Origin: a virus
IMG/VR virus record: IMGVR_UViG_3300031485_000046
Direction: 5' to 3' (one strand)
DNA length: 64,000 nucleotides
In this document: positions 3,099-23,308 of the stretch, in pieces
Layout: every line of letters begins with the position of its first letter
How positions within the stretch are numbered: the stretch's first letter is position 1
Made by a program: the position numbers and the translations under genes
Notes under the pieces: model-generated
Seen by the model: only the letters and a program-made list of their open reading frames with translations
Databases searched by the model: none
Told to the model about the DNA's origin: nothing

Positions 3099-3607
3099 GG
3101 CAATACATCTCTCGCTTTCCATGCACAATAATACAACATACTTGTACAAGATGCCGCAGGAATATAATACCATGTAACAGATTTTTTGAATCGTTTTTCC
3201 TTTTCAATCTTGATAAAGTTAATGGATTGTAGAAATTTAATAACCTCCCGTATCTTTTTAAGCGGGAATAGCGTTCTCTCTTGCATTTTTCGTAAAGGGT
3301 ACGTAAACCAGATATTTCCTTGTTTATCTTCATGGTACTTATCTATCTCATCTAATTTTCGTTCTGCTGGATATAAATAGTAATGATCATACCCGGAATT
3401 TCCGTATGTGTCTTCCGCTATTTGTTTGGCTTCTATCATTAGTGAAATGATTACTGCCGTTTCAGTACCCATTATTTTAAGGATATTTGAGTCAATCATA
3501 ATCCTATCCATCCCACATAGATTCCATGCTACTTTTTCACGAATATCGGAAGTTATTTCCTTTCCATATACTTTCATAAATGTTTCCATATTCGGTAAAC
3601 TTTCCAT
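3086..3607 (-). CDS. hypothetical protein
   Basis: 173 aa ORF with strong SD (GGAAGGAGG) before ATG at 3607; first gene of minus-strand replication cluster. Confidence 0.6.
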   Translation of the reverse strand: MESLPNMETFMKVYGKEITSDIREKVAWNLCGMDRIMIDSNILKIMGTETAVIISLMIEAKQIAEDTYGNSGYDHYYLYPAERKLDEIDKYHEDKQGNIWFTYPLRKMQERTLFPLKKIREVIKFLQSINFIKIEKEKRFKKSVTWYYIPAASCTSMLYYCAWKARDVLPWKK

Positions 3608-14568: not shown

Positions 14569-15078
14569 TGGTAAAATACTCATACCGTAAGGTAAGCTAT
14601 GATATAGTAAAAATTGGGTAGTTTGGTAGTTATAGAGGTAGTCAGATAGAATAGGAAAAAAACTATCCATAAAAATAACATAGATAGGTAGACTAATATG
14701 GTATAATCTATAGAAACCTATATATCAATACAATCCATACTTTTACTATCCAAATAAGCTAATAATCCAATATAATCCAGATAATCCTAAACAGGTACAT
14801 ATAGTCAATTATAATAAGATACAGAAGAGGCAATCCCAAATCATACTAAGATGGTATACCAATATATCTGATACACCATATAACCTATCTCATGTAACCA
14901 TACGAATATGCATATGGATAAACAGTAAGAACGACATAATACAAATATACACCAATTCAATCAAGCTAATAGGAACATACGCAATAAGCTAATATCCGAT
15001 AAGCCTAAACAGGTACATAGTCAATATCAATATCTAGTCAATAGTAAACTAACATGCGAGCCTCCCTAAGGTAGGTCC

Positions 15079-15104
15079 CATAAATTGGTACCATAAATTG
15101 GTAC
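15079..15104. repeat. tandem 13-bp repeat CATAAATTGGTAC x2 (contains GGTACC palindrome)
   Basis: Two adjacent identical 13-mers read directly. Confidence 0.6.
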
Positions 15105-15439
15105 CATATCCTGGTTTACCAGCATGTGGTAACCTTACCTCCATCCTTACCATCACCTATACCACCATTCATCTGGATCTAATCTGCCTATACCCATATT
15201 TAATCTATGGTATTTAATAAATGGACACCATATTTCATAAATGGATAGCCAAAACCATACAAGCCATATCCTATTCCGTATTCCAATCCAATATATAGAT
15301 ACCTATACCTCCACTTCACCATGTACTGGGAAACCCAGTAATTGGTATAAAAAAATGGGACCTAAGTGTGGTAACCTAGATTTATCTATGTATGATCGTT
15401 TATATAGTGAAACCGAGATTTATACCTATTATTTTGTCC

Positions 15440-15900
15440 TCCACTATACCAATACGGTGGTATGCTGGATTGTAATCAGGAAATTCAAATACGGAGTAGA
15501 CCTCGATGTTTTACTATGTATATATAGAACGTATCTTTATAACAGTACCTACCAACTATCCACTACGGTGGTGTGTTGGATTGTACTTATAAATATGTGG
15601 AAAATAGAAAATGGGAGGTATTTCGATGTTTTACTATGTAGAACCGACGGTCTGTTTTTGTCAGGAATCTTCCAACTATCCACTACGGTGGTATATTGGG
15701 AGATACTTACCGAAACGTGTATGATATGAAATGGGAGGTATTTCGATGTTTTACTATGCATATATAGAGATATTGATTGGTTCCCATTTACCCTATATCT
15801 TACCCAGTATCCACTACGGTGGTATGTTGGGTAGTATTAATCCGTAGTATGGGTAGGTACTGTCTAGATTGTTTATCTATATATAGAGAATGAATAAGGT
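15440..15900. repeat. ~110-130 bp tandem repeat array, 4 units, each with blocks 'CGATGTTTTACTATG' and 'TATCCACTACGGTGGT'
   Basis: Block A at 15504, 15624, 15744; block B at 15451, 15560, 15680, 15811; track ORFs 15241..15729(+) and 15549..15761(-) merely translate the repeats. Confidence 0.75.
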
Positions 15901-16410
15901 GTGTCCATTCCCAAAATACCTCAGGCCCTCCATTATCTAGAATTTTCCCCAATTATAAAAATTTGTCAACCTCTGGCAGCTAAATGGAGTATAAGTATCC
16001 TACGGATACATGTATAAAAATGAAATCTTGGACACGTATCCAACGGATTATTTTATAAAAATGGGATTGGATTATTTTTATTTATACAGGTTCAATTTGA
16101 GAAAATGCACCTGTTTGAGTTTTCGATGGGTAATTGGTATAACAATAGTTGGATTATATAAAAACGGTATGGGATAATACCAGACCCGTTTTGAAGGCAT
16201 AAATTGCATAAATCAGTTCCGTTTATTTTTTTATTTCCTATGGATGGTACCGAATATTTCGAGGAGAAAAGGAATCCATAAAAATCATACGAGGTTTTTC
16301 ATGCTACCTAATCCAAAATACGTGGCGAATTTTCGGCTCCGTAATCGTTTTTCTAGAGGTGAGCGGTGAATTCATACCGGTAGAAAATGAGCGCCTTCTA
16401 GCGCACCGCT

Positions 16411-16449
16411 GGCGGAGAAACTCATTGGCGGAGAAACTGGCGGAGAAAA
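16411..16449. repeat. iteron cluster GGCGGAGAAA(C) x3
   Basis: Copies at 16411..16421, 16427..16437, 16439..16449; same 11-mer as at 4117..4142. Confidence 0.65.
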
Positions 16450-16457
16450 TGGATGGA

Positions 16458-16548
16458 TTTTTCTGTTTTTCTGTTTTTCTGATTGTTGTACATCGTTTCT
16501 ACATTCTACATTCTACATTCTACATTCTACATTCTACATTCTGCATTT
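16458..16548. repeat. microsatellite-like tandem repeats: TTTTTCTG x3 then TACATTC x6-7
   Basis: 8-mer repeats about 16458..16482; heptamer array 16500..16541 with a degenerate seventh unit to 16548. Confidence 0.7.
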
Positions 16549-17060
16549 CAGAAGAATGCATGTGGTACTTTATAAGATGCATGTATGCAATGTCATATGC
16601 ATCCTTAATTGTCTCCTGATTACTATACAATTATACACTATTCCTATTCCTGTTTCAATCGTAACAGATATTTTACTATTATATAATAATCTATAGTATT
16701 GTGTCATATTGTAGAATATTCTTATATTCATGAATATCAGACAAGCATAATGCAGAATGCATATTATACAATGCATTATTCAGCTATATTTTTCACAAGC
16801 ATTTTTTAGTAGTACAATGCATAATGCAGAATGCATCATGCATTATTCAATGAAACATTTCACAAGTGTTCATACAGTGCATACAATACATTCTGCATCA
16901 TGCATCATGCATTATTCAGCTATATTTTTCACAAGCATTTTTTAGTAGTACAATACATTCTGCAATATGCATTGTATAGCATGTATTATTCAATGAAACA
17001 TTTCACAAGTGTTACTGTATCCGAAGAGTATACAATGCATTTTTCAATGAAATATTTCAC
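16540..17060. repeat. ATGCAT-dense region with ~126-140 bp direct repeats (units contain 'TCAGCTATATTTTTCACAAGC' and 'TTCAATGAAACATTTCACAAG')
   Basis: About a dozen ATGCAT hexamers in ~500 bp; 19-mer TCAGCTATATTTTTCACAA at 16780 and 16906 (also 4831); track ORFs here are repeat translations. Confidence 0.65.
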
Positions 17061-17191
17061 AAGCGATACTGTGATCGAATTGTATCTGAATGACTATACA
17101 ATTCACTATTATTTTATAAAACTCTATAGTATTGCAGAATACAGTAGAATTCAGTAGAATTATATTAAGTGTATAGTCTTTTCATGCATAG

Positions 17192-17219
17192 TTGACATTC
17201 TATCGTAGAGTGCTATACT
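17192..17219 (+). promoter_or_regulatory. sigma70-like promoter TTGACA-N16-TATACT
   Basis: TTGACA 17192..17197, TATACT 17214..17219, ~120 nt upstream of small gene start 17337. Confidence 0.55.
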
Positions 17220-17336
17220 GTACTCGTAGCAAGCGAGCGAGCAAGTTCTTTGACAACTGAAGAAGCAAGCTCATAACAGAGTAACACTTCTTCAGAACAT
17301 ACGCGCACAACGTTGCGCAGAAAGAGAGTGTGTAGC

Positions 17337-17675
17337 ATGACAACGAGCAGCAAGAAGAACGTAAACAGTAAGAAAGCTGAAATAGTCGAACAGAAAGCAG
17401 TTGAAGTAAAGAAAGAAGAAGTAAGAGAAGCAAAGAAGATTAGCAATACTCAGAAGTGTGCTGATATGATCATGCAACTTGCGAAAGACGCTAAGTATAC
17501 TCGCAGTGAAATTTGTAATGCTGTTTCAGATGCACTAACAGCATTAAGCATAGTCACAGTAAAGACTATGCTTTCAGACTTGCAGAACAGCAAGTATGCA
17601 AGACGTTATAGCACTCATACTATCGCAGTAAACAAAGAAACAAAGATTGTAACAGTAGCAAGTGAGATAAAATGA
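17337..17675 (+). CDS. hypothetical small protein
   Basis: ATG 17337 with SD AAAGAGAG 8 nt upstream (track ORF starts at TTG 17313); 112 aa, Lys/Glu-rich N-terminus. Confidence 0.5.
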   Translation: MTTSSKKNVNSKKAEIVEQKAVEVKKEEVREAKKISNTQKCADMIMQLAKDAKYTRSEICNAVSDALTALSIVTVKTMLSDLQNSKYARRYSTHTIAVNKETKIVTVASEIK

Positions 17676-17884
17676 AGTATCAGCATGTTGAACGTTCGCA
17701 AGCTCTCGCAGTAAGTGACGTTGAAACTTTGCAGAATATTGCAAAAAGACGTCTGATCGATTTGAAACAGCTTGCAAGAGAAGCAGACTCTTTACTTGTC
17801 TTTTCAGTAATAAGAAATACATGTATTCAAATCGATCGAAGCATCGATGATGCACTTGAAAACGCAAGAAAATTACTGAAGTAG
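17672..17884 (+). CDS. hypothetical small protein
   Basis: 70 aa; ATGA start/stop overlap with preceding gene; followed by strong terminator. Confidence 0.5.
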   Translation: MKYQHVERSQALAVSDVETLQNIAKRRLIDLKQLAREADSLLVFSVIRNTCIQIDRSIDDALENARKLLK

Positions 17885-17889
17885 TACAA

Positions 17890-17940
17890 AAAAAGATAGT
17901 CAAGTATCTACAATTCGATACTTGACTATCTTTTTATCTC
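17890..17940. terminator. strong (bidirectional-capable) rho-independent terminator
   Basis: Perfect 15-bp stem AGATAGTCAAGTATC/GATACTTGACTATCT (17894..17908 / 17917..17931), 8-nt loop, flanking A-run and T-run. Confidence 0.8.
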
Positions 17941-17960
17941 ATTTGAAAGAGAGTGATACT

Positions 17961-18284
17961 ATGTTAGATAATCAGTATGAATTACATCAAAAGATACAAA
18001 AAATAGAACACAAGCATATCAGATTACATGCAAGCAATTGTATGTACAAATTGATGAATATTCAATTGTTACTTGAAGAACAGATTAATCTACTCATTTC
18101 TGATATTGTAGCAAATGATGCTTCTGTTAGTGAAATATTGCTAACAGAACGTCAAAGTACATTTGATAATGAACTTTTTGCGATAACGACAAAAGAAGAT
18201 AGAAAAGCAATAGCAATACTGCATAATACTATAATCGATAGTATGAATGCAGTAAGAAAGACAATCATCTATACAGACGAATAA
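17961..18284 (+). CDS. hypothetical small protein
   Basis: ATG 17961 with SD GAAAGAGAG 7 nt upstream; track start (TTG 17922) lies inside the terminator stem so was moved. Confidence 0.5.
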   Translation: MLDNQYELHQKIQKIEHKHIRLHASNCMYKLMNIQLLLEEQINLLISDIVANDASVSEILLTERQSTFDNELFAITTKEDRKAIAILHNTIIDSMNAVRKTIIYTDE

Positions 18285-18323
18285 AATTACACAATAGAGC
18301 ATAATTGATAGCAATTGAATAGA

Positions 18324-18361
18324 AAAGAGTAGTCAATACTAGACTACTCTTTTCTTTTTTA
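18324..18361 (+). terminator. rho-independent terminator
   Basis: 11-bp stem AAAGAGTAGTC/GACTACTCTTT (18324..18334 / 18342..18352), 7-nt loop, T-run to 18360. Confidence 0.7.
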
Positions 18362-18745
18362 TTCATGCATACAATGCATGATGCATCCTGCACTATGCAT
18401 AGTATAAGCGTTCATAGTAGCATTTGATAACATAACACTACACTATTTATTACAATTAGACAATATACTACAATATGATAGTGTAGTGTGTATTGTCTAT
18501 TCTATACACTACAATATAGACAAGTATACACTACAATATAGACAAGTATAGAATAGAGTATAATAATCTATAGTATGCTACACTATATAGCAATATAATA
18601 TAATAATATATAATTGTATAGTAAAGCAGATACAATTCAATACAATGACTGCGCTAGTATACAATGCATGATGCATGATGCATCGTACACAATGCATAAT
18701 GTAAAATCGATTTTACACGTTGCAGAATGCATGCTGGCTCCTGGC

Positions 18746-18902
18746 CCCCTCTAAAATTGTGACAAATTTTTCTGGATATTAAAATGGGTAATCCATTATT
18801 TTCTAAAGCATATTCATTATTTATTCTACGTATCTTTCACACACCCCTCGTAAAATTGCTACTGATTTTTCCCAATACTAAAGTGGGTAATCCATTATTT
18901 TC
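18746..18902. repeat. two ~58-bp direct repeats sharing 'AAAATTG..TTTTTC..TAAA.TGGGTAATCCATTATTTTC'
   Basis: Copies at 18746..18803 and 18844..18902; inverted partial copy 'TAATGGATTA..ACCCA' near 18961; partial copy near 19110. Confidence 0.6.
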
Positions 18903-19426
18903 GATATATCTATTCTGTATGACTGTATAGATAGTATAAGATGCAGTATCCAATTTTAACTAATGGATTAATATACCCAATTTACTCATACTATACGTAT
19001 CTTCATGGATCCGTTTTCTTTCGTCTTTATTTTTACCATACCCCGTCATTCTGTATGAATTTATCCAAAAATAACCGCATAAATATTTTGTAAAAATTTA
19101 TATGGGAGTTAAAATGGGTTGATTAGATCAGTAGAGAGGTTAGATCACACTAGGGAGTTAGATACGATGCATCCTAGCCCGGATCCTGATAGGCTAGGAT
19201 GCATATAGAAACTATGTTTGTCGTAATATATCTTGAAAACGCATCAGATTCGTTTCATACTGTGCGATTTCCTTGCTTATGGAAGCTGTTCGTTCTGTTT
19301 CAGACGTTGTTTCTATCGTCTAGAGTGAAAAAGATCGAATACCGTGCAAGGATTTAACGTGTCATGCCATCCCATTCGGTTGTTCCCTCCGTCCTTGCGA
19401 CTTTCCTATAAGGGATGGAAACCGGG

Positions 19427-19645
19427 TCATTTCGCCCGCTCCTCCCAGAACCGTCTGCGTCGCTCCTCCCTGTGACGCTTGATATTCTCCCGCACCCTCT
19501 GCGTGCGGGGCGGGAACGTGTTCAGATGGGTCAGCACCGGCTCCACGCTGACAGCTCTGCCGAATTCCCTCTCCCATTCCTGGGCGTAGATTTCCTCGTA
19601 GGATAACATTTCGCGAAATCTGAGCCCCGTGCATCGTCCGCTCAT
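19427..19645 (-). CDS. small basic hypothetical protein inside a GC-rich islet
   Basis: 72 aa ORF starting 1 nt after kdsB stop; local GC visibly about 60% versus ~40% surroundings; no recognised motif. Confidence 0.3.
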   Translation of the reverse strand: MSGRCTGLRFREMLSYEEIYAQEWEREFGRAVSVEPVLTHLNTFPPRTQRVRENIKRHREERRRRFWEERAK

Positions 19646-20436
19646 TCCTTACCCTCCTTTTTTTCTATAATTTCATCATATTCATTTTCTTTACCAGAGT
19701 TTATTATACAACGAACAGCTTCCAAATCAGCAGGAGTATCTACACTAGGTCCAACTTTTTTTGCTCTTGTTATTTCTACTTTAATGGAAAAATCATGTTC
19801 TAATATTCTGAGCTGTTCCAGTGATTCTGCTGATGCCAAAGGTGTTTGTGGCATTTTGGCATAATAATGGATTAAGAAACGTCTAGTAAATCCATAAATT
19901 CCTATATGTCGGTAGATGGGATATACTTCTTCCGGATCTCTAATAAAAGGGATAGGAGACCTACTGAAATATAAAGCATCTCCATTTATTCTGAATGCCA
20001 CTTTTACTACCGATGGATCATTGATAGTAGCGGTATCTGTAATAAGGGCACATATCGTAGCAGATTCCGTAGCCCTATTTTCAGTTTTATAAAATAATGA
20101 TATTACTTCATCAATCATACAAGGATTAAGTAATGGTTCATCCCCTTGTATGTTTATCACTATATTATTATTAGAGAATTTTTTAGCTATTTCCACAACT
20201 CTACTAGTTCCGTTTGTATGATTTGGAGAAGTTAGCATAGCTTCTCCACCGAAATTATTTACAGCCTGCACGATTCTTTCATCGTCAGTAGCTACAATCA
20301 ACCGGTCAAGTAAAGTAGATCGTGAGGCTCGCTCGTACACTCTCTGGATCATTGTTTTTCCGCATATATCAGCTAGAGGTTTACCGGGGAGCCTTGTAGA
20401 ATTGTATCTAGCGGGGATAACTCCTAAAGTTATCAT
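19642..20436 (-). CDS. kdsB: 3-deoxy-manno-octulosonate cytidylyltransferase (CMP-Kdo synthetase)
   Basis: 264 aa; near-collinear with KdsB hallmark segments 'VIPARYNSTRLPGKPL', 'VATDDERI', 'QGDEPL', 'ALYFSRSPIP', 'HIGIYGF', 'EQLRILE', 'VDTPADLE' (compared from memory with E. coli KdsB). Confidence 0.85.
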   Translation of the reverse strand: MITLGVIPARYNSTRLPGKPLADICGKTMIQRVYERASRSTLLDRLIVATDDERIVQAVNNFGGEAMLTSPNHTNGTSRVVEIAKKFSNNNIVINIQGDEPLLNPCMIDEVISLFYKTENRATESATICALITDTATINDPSVVKVAFRINGDALYFSRSPIPFIRDPEEVYPIYRHIGIYGFTRRFLIHYYAKMPQTPLASAESLEQLRILEHDFSIKVEITRAKKVGPSVDTPADLEAVRCIINSGKENEYDEIIEKKEGKE

Positions 20437-20455
20437 TATTTATCACTTCCATTCA

Positions 20456-20602
20456 TTATTTAAGATTATGTGGTACTTTTTTGTCAAGTTCCAGTAATTT
20501 TGCATTAACTTTTTCTAGTTCAGCCATGAGAAATATTACCATATCGCATCTATCAGGTAGTATTTTTTCTTTACCTGTTACTTTCCTCCATAATTCTACC
20601 AT
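20456..20602 (-). CDS. small protein (48 aa), paralog of C-terminal domain of 21367..21669 product
   Basis: Own translation: MVELWRKVTGKEKILPDRCDMVIFLMAELEK... aligns with '...AVRLWRKTTGKDFIMPDRCDLVVYLMEELDK' (about 20/38 identical); below the ORF-track size cutoff. Confidence 0.4.
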   Translation of the reverse strand: MVELWRKVTGKEKILPDRCDMVIFLMAELEKVNAKLLELDKKVPHNLK

Positions 20603-20658
20603 CGGGATTTGTCCAAAGTTTCTTGTTATTGTCGTATTTCTATCCAGTTCTATAATAC

Positions 20659-21195
20659 TTATTCAGAAAGGTTGTCATGTTCACTTGCATTTTCCTCCTT
20701 TGTTGGAAGTGGTACCGGTAACTTTTCTTTTATGCAATTCATAAGGATTGTATATTTCCTTTCTTGCATCATTTCTAATGCTTTTACCATCGTTTTTCCC
20801 CAACCATTACATGAATATTTTCCTAAGTCTTTAATGTAGGCAACGTATCCTTTCATTCCGTTTAGTTCTGTAGTCATTGGCTGAATTGTAATGGAATACG
20901 GAATTTTCATCAATTCATCTATAGTGGGATCCTCGTTTCTGTTTATATTTTGTGAAATTACCGACATATTTATCATGTCAAACCTATTAGACATACGGTC
21001 AGGTACGTTAATCGTAGCACCACATCCGGAGCATCGCAAAATTAAGGAATCTAATTCTGCAATCATTTTATATGGATTTGGATACGCATACTGTATTTGG
21101 TCAAGAGTGTCAATTGGTTTAGCGCAAAGTGGGCAAATTATTTGTCTACCGTCACAAAACAATACATAACGCCCTTGTCCTATAGAAAGACTCAT
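20659..21195 (-). CDS. hypothetical protein with N-terminal zinc ribbon and HicB-like C-terminal region
   Basis: 178 aa; CxxC..CxxC; C-terminal 'YSITIQP..GYVAYIKDLGKYSCNGWGKTMVKALEMM' resembles HicB/UPF0150 pattern (weak). Confidence 0.5.
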   Translation of the reverse strand: MSLSIGQGRYVLFCDGRQIICPLCAKPIDTLDQIQYAYPNPYKMIAELDSLILRCSGCGATINVPDRMSNRFDMINMSVISQNINRNEDPTIDELMKIPYSITIQPMTTELNGMKGYVAYIKDLGKYSCNGWGKTMVKALEMMQERKYTILMNCIKEKLPVPLPTKEENASEHDNLSE

Positions 21196-21389
21196 TCTTC
21201 CATCTCCTTTTTAAGCAAAGCCTTCTGCATTTTCCCCAAAGCCGCAAACAACGTATCTTTACAACCCGTATAGATATACAGACTGCCCACAACTTTACCA
21301 TCAACGAGTACAGTATATGTAGGAGATTTGATTGGCCCATGGTTCTCTTCGAGTATTATCACTATTTCATTCCCCCTTTTCCATTTCAC
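21192..21389 (-). CDS. hypothetical small protein
   Basis: 65 aa ORF overlapping neighbours by 4 and 23 nt. Confidence 0.4.
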   Translation of the reverse strand: MKWKRGNEIVIILEENHGPIKSPTYTVLVDGKVVGSLYIYTGCKDTLFAALGKMQKALLKKEMEE

Positions 21390-21669
21390 GTATTCTACGT
21401 TTAGCTTTATCCAATTCCTCCATCAGATATACTACTAAATCACATCTGTCTGGCATGATAAAATCTTTCCCTGTTGTTTTTCGCCATAGTCTTACCGCTC
21501 TCATATCCGCTTTCCATACAATATCGAACACATTCTGGAGTTGTTTAGCGTCTTCTTTCAAGGAATCCACGAGCATTTTCATATTTTCTAACCGTTTTTT
21601 CAAGGAATCTCTCTCTTTAACCAGCTTTTCTAGTTCTTGCATGAGCAATTTTCGATCACTTTCCATCAA
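21367..21669 (-). CDS. hypothetical coiled-coil protein with C-terminal 'PDRCD' domain
   Basis: 100 aa; first gene of minus-strand operon divergent from portal gene. Confidence 0.5.
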   Translation of the reverse strand: MMESDRKLLMQELEKLVKERDSLKKRLENMKMLVDSLKEDAKQLQNVFDIVWKADMRAVRLWRKTTGKDFIMPDRCDLVVYLMEELDKAKRRIREMEKGE

Positions 21670-21796
21670 TGTCCCTCCTTATAAATTTGCGCTTCACTAT
21701 ATTATACAACACCATTTTTGCTCATTTATACATAGTTTTCCATGAAAATTGTGTTTAATTTGCAATTATAGTATACTGTATAGTTTTCTGTCATAG

Positions 21797-21825
21797 TAGA
21801 CAAAATTGAATTATGGGTATATAAT
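21797..21825 (+). promoter_or_regulatory. sigma70-like promoter TAGACA-N17-TATAAT for the late operon
   Basis: TAGACA 21797..21802, 17-nt spacer, TATAAT 21820..21825; SD AAGGAGG and portal start at 21848. Confidence 0.55.
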
Positions 21826-21847
21826 GTATTTATAATACGGTAAGGAG

Positions 21848-23308
21848 GTGAGTAGGATAGAAAATATCAGTACCAACGAATTGGTTGGGCAATTACAGCG
21901 GATTACAGCTATGGCTGAACTGGCTACAAGAATGAATGTCGGTGCTAGGATGGGAATGCAGTATGACGGCCAACGGGATATTGCAAAAGCTCTTGGCTAC
22001 CCACAAACAATACGGTACAACGACCTCCTTGCCGCATATACCCGTCAGGATATGGCGAAAGCCATTATAGATCGTCCCGTAAAATCTACTTGGCGTGGAG
22101 ATTTCAAGCTAGTAGAAACCCACAGGGACGATGATACGCAACTCGAAACAGCTTGGTCTACATTATATAGGAAATTGCACATAAAACAGAATTTCCTTAG
22201 AGTGGACAAGCTAGCCTGCCTCGGTAATTATGCTCTTCTTTTTCTTGGTTTCAATGATGTGAATAGTCCTGAAGAATTGATACGACCTGTTTCTGCTGGA
22301 GTAGGACGTGAATTGCTGTATTTGAAACCGTTTGGACAGAATGTCATTCAGATCAAAGATTGGGAAGATGATACAAGTTCACCTGAATATGGAATGCCGC
22401 TTATTTATGAAGTAGACATTGGAGAAGCATCATCTAAAAAGAGCCGAACTGTCAGCATCCATCGGTCAAGGATTGTTCATGTAGCTTTCGACCTACTTGA
22501 ATCAGAGTATGAAGGTGCTCCTGTTCTAGAAGTTGTTTTTAACCGTCTGAAAGACCTTGAAAAGCTAGTAGGCGGTTCTGCTGAAATGTTCTGGAGAGGT
22601 GCTAGACCTGGATATGCAGGTAAAATTGATCCAGAATACATGCTGACGAAAGATACGGAAGAGGGATTGAAACGCCAGCTGGATGAGTTTGAAAATAATC
22701 TGCGAAGGATACTCATGCTTGAAGGTGTTACACTCGATAGCCTTGAGCCGCAGGTAGTTGACCCGTCTATGCACGTTGATATCCAGATTCAGATGATTTC
22801 TGCTATTACTGGTATTCCTAAGAGAATTCTTACAGGAAGTGAGCGAGGTGATCTTGCTTCTACGCAAGACAAAGATAACTGGCTCGACCTTATCCAAATG
22901 CGACGGGAAGAATATGCTGAACCTAAGATCATTCGAGCAACCATTGACCGTTGTATTGAATTTGGTGTGCTTCCTAAGCCTGAAAAGGAAACATACAAAA
23001 TAAAATGGCAGGATCTTTATGCACCGTCTGTTAAGGATCAAGCGGACATTGGGCAGATACGTTCGCTTGCCTTGAAACATTATACGTACAATCCTGAAGC
23101 AGAGCAGTTTATCCCGTTTGAAGCGTTCCTTACATTCTTCCTTGGTTTGGAAGATGAGGAAGTGGAGTATATCAAAAAGCTCCAGCAAACAAGTGAAAGG
23201 ATATTGACGCCTGAATTAAAGGAACTTGCGAATGAAAATGCACCAACACGGAGAGAACGCCCTCCGCGGAGAGGAATACCTCGAGAGGATGAAGAACTAG
23301 AAAAGTGA
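21848..23308 (+). CDS. portal protein (DUF1073-like)
   Basis: 486 aa first gene of late operon, followed by head-morphogenesis and capsid genes; acidic C-terminus; family assignment from remembered patterns and gene order. Confidence 0.65.
   Translation: MSRIENISTNELVGQLQRITAMAELATRMNVGARMGMQYDGQRDIAKALGYPQTIRYNDLLAAYTRQDMAKAIIDRPVKSTWRGDFKLVETHRDDDTQLETAWSTLYRKLHIKQNFLRVDKLACLGNYALLFLGFNDVNSPEELIRPVSAGVGRELLYLKPFGQNVIQIKDWEDDTSSPEYGMPLIYEVDIGEASSKKSRTVSIHRSRIVHVAFDLLESEYEGAPVLEVVFNRLKDLEKLVGGSAEMFWRGARPGYAGKIDPEYMLTKDTEEGLKRQLDEFENNLRRILMLEGVTLDSLEPQVVDPSMHVDIQIQMISAITGIPKRILTGSERGDLASTQDKDNWLDLIQMRREEYAEPKIIRATIDRCIEFGVLPKPEKETYKIKWQDLYAPSVKDQADIGQIRSLALKHYTYNPEAEQFIPFEAFLTFFLGLEDEEVEYIKKLQQTSERILTPELKELANENAPTRRERPPRRGIPREDEELEK

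Follow-up and report, generated by a model that had tools for sequence, protein, structure and literature searches.

The virus sequence IMGVR_UViG_3300031485_000046 was analysed as one stretch of 64,000 nucleotides (nt), called the window here, and carries a small gene, ORF72, that was very probably acquired from another phage. ORF72 is an open reading frame (ORF) of 72 codons at the 3' end of kdsB and lies in an islet rich in guanine and cytosine (GC). Comparison with metagenomic phage contigs indicates that an AT-rich phage would have taken up this gene together with its ribosome-binding site (RBS) from a GC-rich related phage through recombination, and that the source pool would be the small early and accessory genes circulating among related tailed phages. 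The initial annotation had described the islet as a recently acquired fragment, either a host gene remnant, a moron or a structured RNA. Recent acquisition was supported by the data below, and a more fitting description of ORF72 is that of one exchangeable cassette within a hyperplastic accessory operon, an orphan case of a well-known kind of event. The features that carry this conclusion are the following.

19358..19657, no strand: GC-rich islet, 58.7% GC against about 34% in the neighbourhood (maximal-scoring GC segment; composition profile)
19427..19645, minus strand: ORF72, 72 amino acids (aa) with the stop codon inside the interval, basic, predicted to be all-helical (ORF list, frame test, AlphaFold2 model)
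19423..19654, minus strand: putatively transferred cassette, 92.7-94.5% DNA identity to GC-rich phage contigs (blastn ends, alignment A2)
19423..19430, minus strand: donor footprint ATGACCCG, the ORF72 stop overlapping the start of the next donor gene (alignment A2, downstream sequences of all copies)

The cassette was matched in at least 17 metagenomic phage contigs with GC contents of 48-61%. The blastn ends were the same in all loci, running from 19654 or 19649 down to 19423, and were abrupt on both sides, with identity falling from 94% to background within a few nt of either edge. This was the sole DNA-level match of the GC-rich contigs to the whole 64-kb window. The same contigs encode proteins 31-63% identical to those of window genes at 21.4, 43.3, 43.7, 45.5 and 46.2 kb, including a deoxynucleoside monophosphate (dNMP) kinase-like protein and a 3D-domain protein, and these shared genes gave no DNA match. 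By sequence, the GC-rich contigs are distant relatives of the window phage. Identity of about 94% in the DNA of one gene, set against a backbone that has diverged beyond DNA recognition, therefore argues for transfer of that gene. The next donor gene, whose start overlaps the ORF72 stop, begins MTR... in most copies and MTL... in locus L007.

The ORF72 family was traced by protein searches and cluster look-up to dozens of short metagenomic contigs. In the donors ORF72 sits within arrays of small genes joined by 4-nt stop/start overlaps, and its neighbours encode DUF4406, dNMP kinase, 3D-domain and dUTPase proteins, which are early nucleotide-metabolism and accessory functions. All of the 25 or more recovered contexts were phage-like arrays with dUTPase, dNMP kinase, terminase or portal genes nearby. 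ORF72 was found in phages with a lambda-like terminase and portal and also beside relatives of window genes. Upstream of it the donors carry a homologue of the 100-aa gene that the window has at 21367-21669. Many metagenomes of sewage or digester type contain ORF72 at >92% identity, and the phages that carry it differ in their structural modules, which suggests that it confers some useful trait. The proposed transfer would be ordinary phage mosaicism in an unusually clean form, in which a gene-sized unit of 232 nt moved between phages of about 35% and about 60% GC. Its breakpoints are resolved to a few nt and a footprint of the donor's neighbouring gene is retained, which makes the case useful for studying single-gene movement and the rate of amelioration.

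Base composition of the islet was compared with that of its surroundings. GC content was 57.5% over 19340-19645 and 59.8% in ORF72, while the local background (15000-21847 minus the islet, in 300-nt windows) had a mean of 34.3% with a standard deviation (sd) of 3.8 and a maximum of 42.0%. The islet is about 6 sd above the local mean and falls within the top 1% of 306-nt windows of the 64-kb sequence. The jump to about 60% GC over about 300 bp reported in the initial annotation was confirmed (58.7% versus a local 34%, z about 6). The AT-rich surroundings described there were found locally (about 34% GC) but not across the window, which has a GC content of 41.9%, is not uniformly AT-rich and contains a second GC-rich part at 35.4-42 kb. 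GC content at third codon positions (GC3) was 0.75 in ORF72 and 0.79 in the consensus of the other copies, compared to 0.23 in kdsB and 0.31-0.56 in other window genes. The window copy differs from the consensus of the others at 12 positions, 8 of which are unique to the window. Changes assigned to the window lineage were 9 GC-to-AT versus 2 AT-to-GC, which is the direction of amelioration and is not significant (p = 0.16). Together the DNA identity to the donors, the GC3 contrast with kdsB and the lack of ORF72 in the closest relative found (described below) support a recent acquisition.

The second GC-rich part is the biggest compositional anomaly in the window, covering about 6.5 kb at 50-61% GC with peaks of 55-61%. 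The segment 35400-42000 spans plus-strand ORFs of 877 aa and 1156 aa, which are probably tail or tail-fibre genes, and gave no DNA match to the GC-rich contigs.

The anatomy of ORF72 is that of an intact gene. Its ATG occupies 19645-19643 and the kdsB TGA occupies 19644-19642, so that the two genes overlap by 4 nt in an ATGA at 19645-19642 and ORF72 does not start right after the kdsB stop as first described. A Shine-Dalgarno (SD) sequence, AAGGAGG, lies at 19659-19653, 7 nt upstream of the start. The alignment of 11 DNA copies varied at 27 sites, and 14 of these fell on third codon positions of ORF72. When variable codons were classed in 18 copies (11 distinct sequences), the ORF72 frame had 13 that were synonymous only and 9 that changed the amino acid, compared to 3-10 and 15-21 in the other five frames, some of which contained stop codons in some copies. 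ORF72 is a true, intact protein-coding gene under purifying selection. The frame test led to rejection of the other ORFs in the islet, which are one of 90 aa on the minus strand and two, of 63 aa and of 43 aa, on the plus strand. The longer ORFs that overlap ORF72, those of 90 aa and 63 aa, are therefore by-products of GC-richness. Some donor copies encode 87-aa variants of ORF72 (P0011 and P0022) in which the C-terminus changes after FWEE to ...WCESTKRPHRGSGGRCGG. Read in another frame, the end of the 58-aa gene downstream gives a sequence similar to this variant C-terminus, and the variants look like a deletion fusing ORF72 with that gene.

Close relatives of the window phage were recovered by a portal-based search. 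The closest relative found, locus L015, has a portal 96% identical in aa and about 90% in nt, and its structural genes are 90-93% identical in nt. Its alignment to the window ends exactly at 19354 and restarts at 21793, and between those points (L015:862-3665) it carries about 2.8 kb of unrelated small genes, mostly of 50-60% GC. At and below 19354 the window is 77-98% identical to L015. ORF72 is thus ordinary phage coding sequence in the distant GC-rich relatives but is absent from the close relative L015. The interrupted region and the features within it are as follows.

19355..21792, minus strand: variable accessory operon slot with genes of 100 aa, 65 aa, 178 aa and 48 aa, kdsB and ORF72; homology to L015 is interrupted here
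19642..20436, minus strand: kdsB, encoding the synthetase of cytidine monophosphate-3-deoxy-D-manno-octulosonate (CMP-KDO), 36% GC; Pfam CTP_transf_3, E 1.5e-56
19355..19422, minus strand: filler of 68 nt, about 51% GC, from the cassette to the conserved backbone, with a 22-codon open frame MTRFPSLIGKSQGRREQPNGMA

On the minus strand, 21794-21765 resembles a promoter (11 of 12 matches) and points leftward, divergent from the portal gene. The genes behind it are ordered as a 100-aa coiled-coil gene, a 65-aa ORF, a 178-aa zinc-ribbon/HicB-like gene, a 48-aa ORF, kdsB and ORF72, and ORF72 with the filler forms the distal end of the variable operon. The identification of the gene upstream of ORF72 as kdsB was upheld by Pfam and by NCBIfam, whose KdsB models span residues 3-247 of 264 (E 8e-86) and leave a 17-aa C-terminal extension beyond the family model. 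Phage-borne kdsB is rare, with relatives in 7 of 50,697 GenBank phage records that are at most 49% identical, and at most 45% over most of the protein. Short-word blastn of the filler against all loci and the rest of the window gave nothing significant, two of its exact 20-mers were absent from IMG/VR, and the MTRFPSLIGKSQGRREQPNGMA frame had no relatives. A Logan contig, SRR34859213_1977 (L039, 60,630 nt), encodes an identical KdsB and then runs 26 nt into ORF72 before it ends. L039 is a second assembly of essentially the same phage and reproduces the kdsB-ORF72 junction. Its end is consistent with an assembly-graph branch at sequence common to co-occurring phages.

The edges of the cassette suggest how it may have been exchanged. 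In the donors, many of the small genes are linked by a short purine-rich SD/ATGA junction of about 30 nt with the consensus GCCATCAGGAAAGCGAGGGGTGAGGAATGA, which encodes a C-terminal tail AI[R/K]KARGEE, ends in ATGA and places a GAGG roughly 8 nt ahead of the following ATG. The upstream crossover would have fallen inside this junction and used its short SD/ATGA homology, and the downstream crossover 8 nt into the next gene of the donor, apparently by illegitimate recombination. ORF72 is now the last gene of the variable leftward operon diverging from the portal gene, and its anatomy suggests that the ATGA overlap and AAGGAGG couple its translation to that of kdsB. The relevant sequences are listed here.

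19642..19671, minus strand: degenerate junction ATTATAGAAAAAAAGGAGGGTAAGGAATGA at the kdsB 3' end, with the SD AAGGAGG and the ATGA overlap
L004:2680-2709, 2949-2978 and 3427-3456, and L015:1746-1775 and 2018-2047: examples of the junction

Several observations weigh against this account. Every sampled donor copy lies at about the same distance (5.5-7%) from the window copy, and therefore no actual donor can be named and 'recent' is only relative. No pre-insertion ('empty site') relative was found. The second assembly may stem from the same sample as the window, and the AlphaFold2 model was built on just 3 near-identical sequences. In addition, the window junction matches the donor junction well only over the last 13 nt (GGGTAAGGAATGA), and for this reason recombination at the junction is something that we only infer.

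Four other origins of the islet were considered. The first was that ORF72 is native and vertically inherited and that its similarity to the GC-rich copies comes from extreme constraint. The donors are distantly related to the window phage, the position of ORF72 downstream of the 100-aa gene homologue hints at old synteny, and the kdsB tail is weakly like the donor junction tail (p 0.01-0.06), all of which would fit vertical descent. Synonymous sites, however, have stayed GC-rich in ORF72 next to the low GC3 of kdsB, the identity collapses from 94% within a few nt on both flanks, and the closest relative is without the gene. Vertical inheritance was judged very improbable.

An assembly chimera, formed in the metagenome at sequence common to co-occurring phages, would account for two observations. 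Many phages in similar samples carry ORF72 at >93% identity, and the second assembly breaks 26 nt into the gene as at a graph branch point. A single switch of genomes would be expected of a chimera, whereas here the native backbone resumes 300 nt later, with sequence at and below 19354 like that of L015. The window copy also has its 8 unique substitutions, and the functional ATGA fusion of kdsB and ORF72 was reproduced in the second assembly, leaving only a slim chance that the islet is an artefact of assembly.

The initial annotation had also suggested a structured RNA, and an islet of this kind could be a non-coding or cis-regulatory RNA at the 3' end of the kdsB operon in which the ORF is incidental. 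Structured RNAs typically stand out as GC-rich patches from AT-rich surroundings, and the minimum free energy of 19423-19654 was slightly below that of shuffled sequences (z = -1.66, with 13 of 200 shuffles as good). This fold is not significant, and the fold of the filler was not above shuffles (z = +0.54). An Rfam scan of 18000-20500 with E up to 10 gave CRISPR-DR2 as its best hit, at 20.1 bits against a gathering threshold of 37 (E 2.2). The substitutions are codon-periodic and mostly synonymous in one frame, and the edges of homology coincide with the RBS and the stop codon. The RNA proposal was therefore considered extremely unlikely.

The protein itself had no relatives outside its own family. 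There was no match in Pfam, NCBIfam, PHROGs or PADLOC, a profile of ORF72 against PDB sequences gave only matches with E > 2, and a Foldseek search of the model against PDB and BFVD gave nothing with E < 1. A phmmer search of 1.84 billion protein representatives returned the ORF72 family itself (92-96% aa identity) and one spurious match, P0004, a 1933-aa tandem-repeat protein whose summed phmmer score is an artefact. Among 50,697 GenBank phages there was no match to 18900-20500 by megablast or to ORF72 by tblastn, and a search of IMG/VR gave none to ORF72. The ORF72 family is an orphan, without sequence or fold relatives. Capture of a bacterial (host) gene remnant, which the compositional contrast and the adjoining kdsB, a bacterial-type metabolic gene, might suggest, has almost no probability given that no relative of ORF72 was found in 185,579 bacterial and archaeal species (one genome each, GTDB) or, beyond its own family and the spurious repeat protein, among the 1.84 billion proteins, that all of the recovered contexts are phage-like, and that the ORF is complete and under purifying selection.

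With acquisition from a related phage as the preferred origin, we considered what the protein may do. ORF72 has 15 Arg and 2 Lys versus 12 Glu, for a net charge of +5, and carries the Arg-rich C-terminus RHREERRRRFWEERAK as first described, with 10 Arg within residues 47-70. AlphaFold2 predicted four helices (8-11, 16-28, 34-43 and 49-71) at modest confidence, with a predicted local distance difference test score of 70.6 and a predicted template modelling score of 0.52. Our best guess, a weak inference from the model and the composition, is that ORF72 may be a small early factor that binds nucleic acid or a host protein. Binding of nucleic acid by the predicted protein is a rather doubtful proposal, and an RNA binder of the Arg-rich motif (ARM) type, as a sub-case of it, is speculative. 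ORF72 adjoined kdsB in 0 of the 27 other loci recovered (L001-L010, L020-L028), and because it never adjoins kdsB in any other context the gene probably has no specific tie to the synthesis of KDO or lipopolysaccharide (LPS).

Lambda and P22 N proteins carry ARM peptides, and a more specific proposal is that ORF72 is an N-type, RNA-binding regulator acting in antitermination or RNA chaperoning. The C-terminal helix NIKRHREERRRRFWEERAK is Arg-rich and has an aromatic residue, in which it is similar to the lambda and P22 N peptides. ORF72, like these proteins, would be a small early phage protein, and its place in early-gene arrays also supports such a role. In contrast to N, the motif of ORF72 is C-terminal and not N-terminal, and no homology was detectable, as N-like families showed no sequence or fold similarity to ORF72 in Pfam, PHROG or Foldseek. 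No boxB-like target was noticed, and no search for boxB/nut hairpins was made. An N-type regulator is quite improbable.

The junction that recurs in the donors is the most interesting by-product of the analysis. L001-L010 and L015 together contain 21 instances of it, and 9 IMG/VR contigs carry it as well. At least 9 different upstream proteins end in it, some of them mutually unrelated, and these include HTH_17 and zinc-ribbon proteins, a 58-aa membrane protein and 'MTHTPGPW...LIAAAPDMLEAL' proteins. Directly downstream of it lie at least 7 different genes. Two of the genes in the L015 slot also end in the junction tail. Where donor contigs differ in their upstream genes, their homology begins at the 5' edge of the junction, 22-28 nt ahead of the ORF72 ATG. 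Within the tail, synonymous positions (AAA, GCG, AGG) hardly vary at all, which would fit a role at the nucleotide level as the RBS of the downstream gene.

Taken further, the sequences raise the idea that the junction is a dedicated portable module for coupling and recombination that swaps small genes singly between phages. We regard this as possible, although on balance we would not expect it. If true, such swaps would span very different base compositions and even different virion modules, ORF72 would be a case of single-gene traffic caught in the act, and the junction would be a coding-sequence analogue of the T4-type PeSL motifs discussed below. The junction motif could serve as a general handle with which to find exchangeable accessory genes in this phage group. 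The junction was noticed across L001-L010, L015 and L020-L038, with the degenerate copy at window 19642-19671, which an nhmmer search with the junction motif did not detect. The 17-aa tail of kdsB was also considered as a derivative of the donor junction. Its likeness, EIIEKKEGKE, was marginal (shuffle p 0.01-0.06, uncorrected), and the derivation is not claimed.

Exchange of this kind was compared with three known systems. Morons are extra genes of deviant composition inserted between conserved phage genes, a concept of Hendrix and Juhala. ORF72 is moron-like in being a small accessory gene of foreign base composition that is absent from the closest relative and lies at the edge of a conserved block. 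Unlike a moron, it is translationally coupled to the gene upstream, and the whole operon slot differs from L015 rather than one gene. A scan limited to sigma-70-type sites gave no promoter for ORF72 itself in the interval from the kdsB 3' end to the ORF, and the closest promoter-like sites on the minus strand, at 19890 and 19995, fall within kdsB and match weakly (9 of 12). No terminator-like site was found below 19427 on the minus strand. The moron label given at first was therefore kept only for the deviant composition and dropped as regards an own promoter, an own terminator and a simple two-gene insertion.

In hyperplastic regions of T4-type phages, cassettes of ORFans are proposed to be shuffled through repeated PeSL motifs (PMC2839356, PMC4122927), each of which is a promoter plus stem-loop terminator motif (PMC2839356). 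The slot described here is likewise a variable region between conserved blocks that is filled with small ORFans, and the donor motif likewise recurs at cassette borders, where homology between genomes begins or ends. Unlike PeSL, the donor junction consists of a coding tail, an SD and an ATGA, without promoter or hairpin, and the window copy is degenerate. The portal is of the DUF1073/HI1409 type and these phages are not T4-like. In lambdoid phages, conserved sequences at gene boundaries have been proposed to target recombination, as summarised in PMC3974807. The resemblance lies in a short conserved boundary between otherwise unrelated neighbours and in the exchange of single genes. The phage group and the sequence are different, and the junction here is known from sequence alone.

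Other observations concerned the neighbourhood of ORF72. The 48-aa ORF of the slot (20456-20602, minus strand) is a partial paralogue of the 100-aa coiled-coil protein, 55% identical to its last 40 residues, and the two share the motif LWRK-TGK--I-PDRCD-V--LM-EL. The 100-aa protein (21367-21669, minus strand) has homologues 32-36% identical in the GC-rich contigs. Immediately 3' of the variable operon, the non-coding stretch 19150-19354 (minus strand) is about 97-98% identical to L015, above the portal (about 90% nt). Its RNA folds far better than shuffled sequences (z = -3.48, 0 of 200), with a 14-bp hairpin at 19165-19206. This stretch may act as a terminator or a regulatory RNA, or may bind a protein.

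Beyond it, 16400-19150 comprises about 2.7 kb of 26-34% GC that is dense in repeats, with ATGCAT-rich repeat families of 28-53 nt. A 59-nt repeat occurs at 18745 and 18844, 99 nt apart, and a perfect 22-nt tandem at 18503-18546. Inverted arms of 75 nt (17074-17148 and 18567-18641) flank three small plus-strand genes (17313-18284). The region looks like an origin or regulatory region, and 18672-19354 is kept in L015. No tRNA genes were found in the window. The closest cultured relatives of the portal (21848-23308) are those of haloarchaeal tailed viruses (36%) and Brevundimonas phages (33%), and the isolate portals nearest to it, which are 25-36% identical, also include those of Vibrio and Pseudoalteromonas phages.
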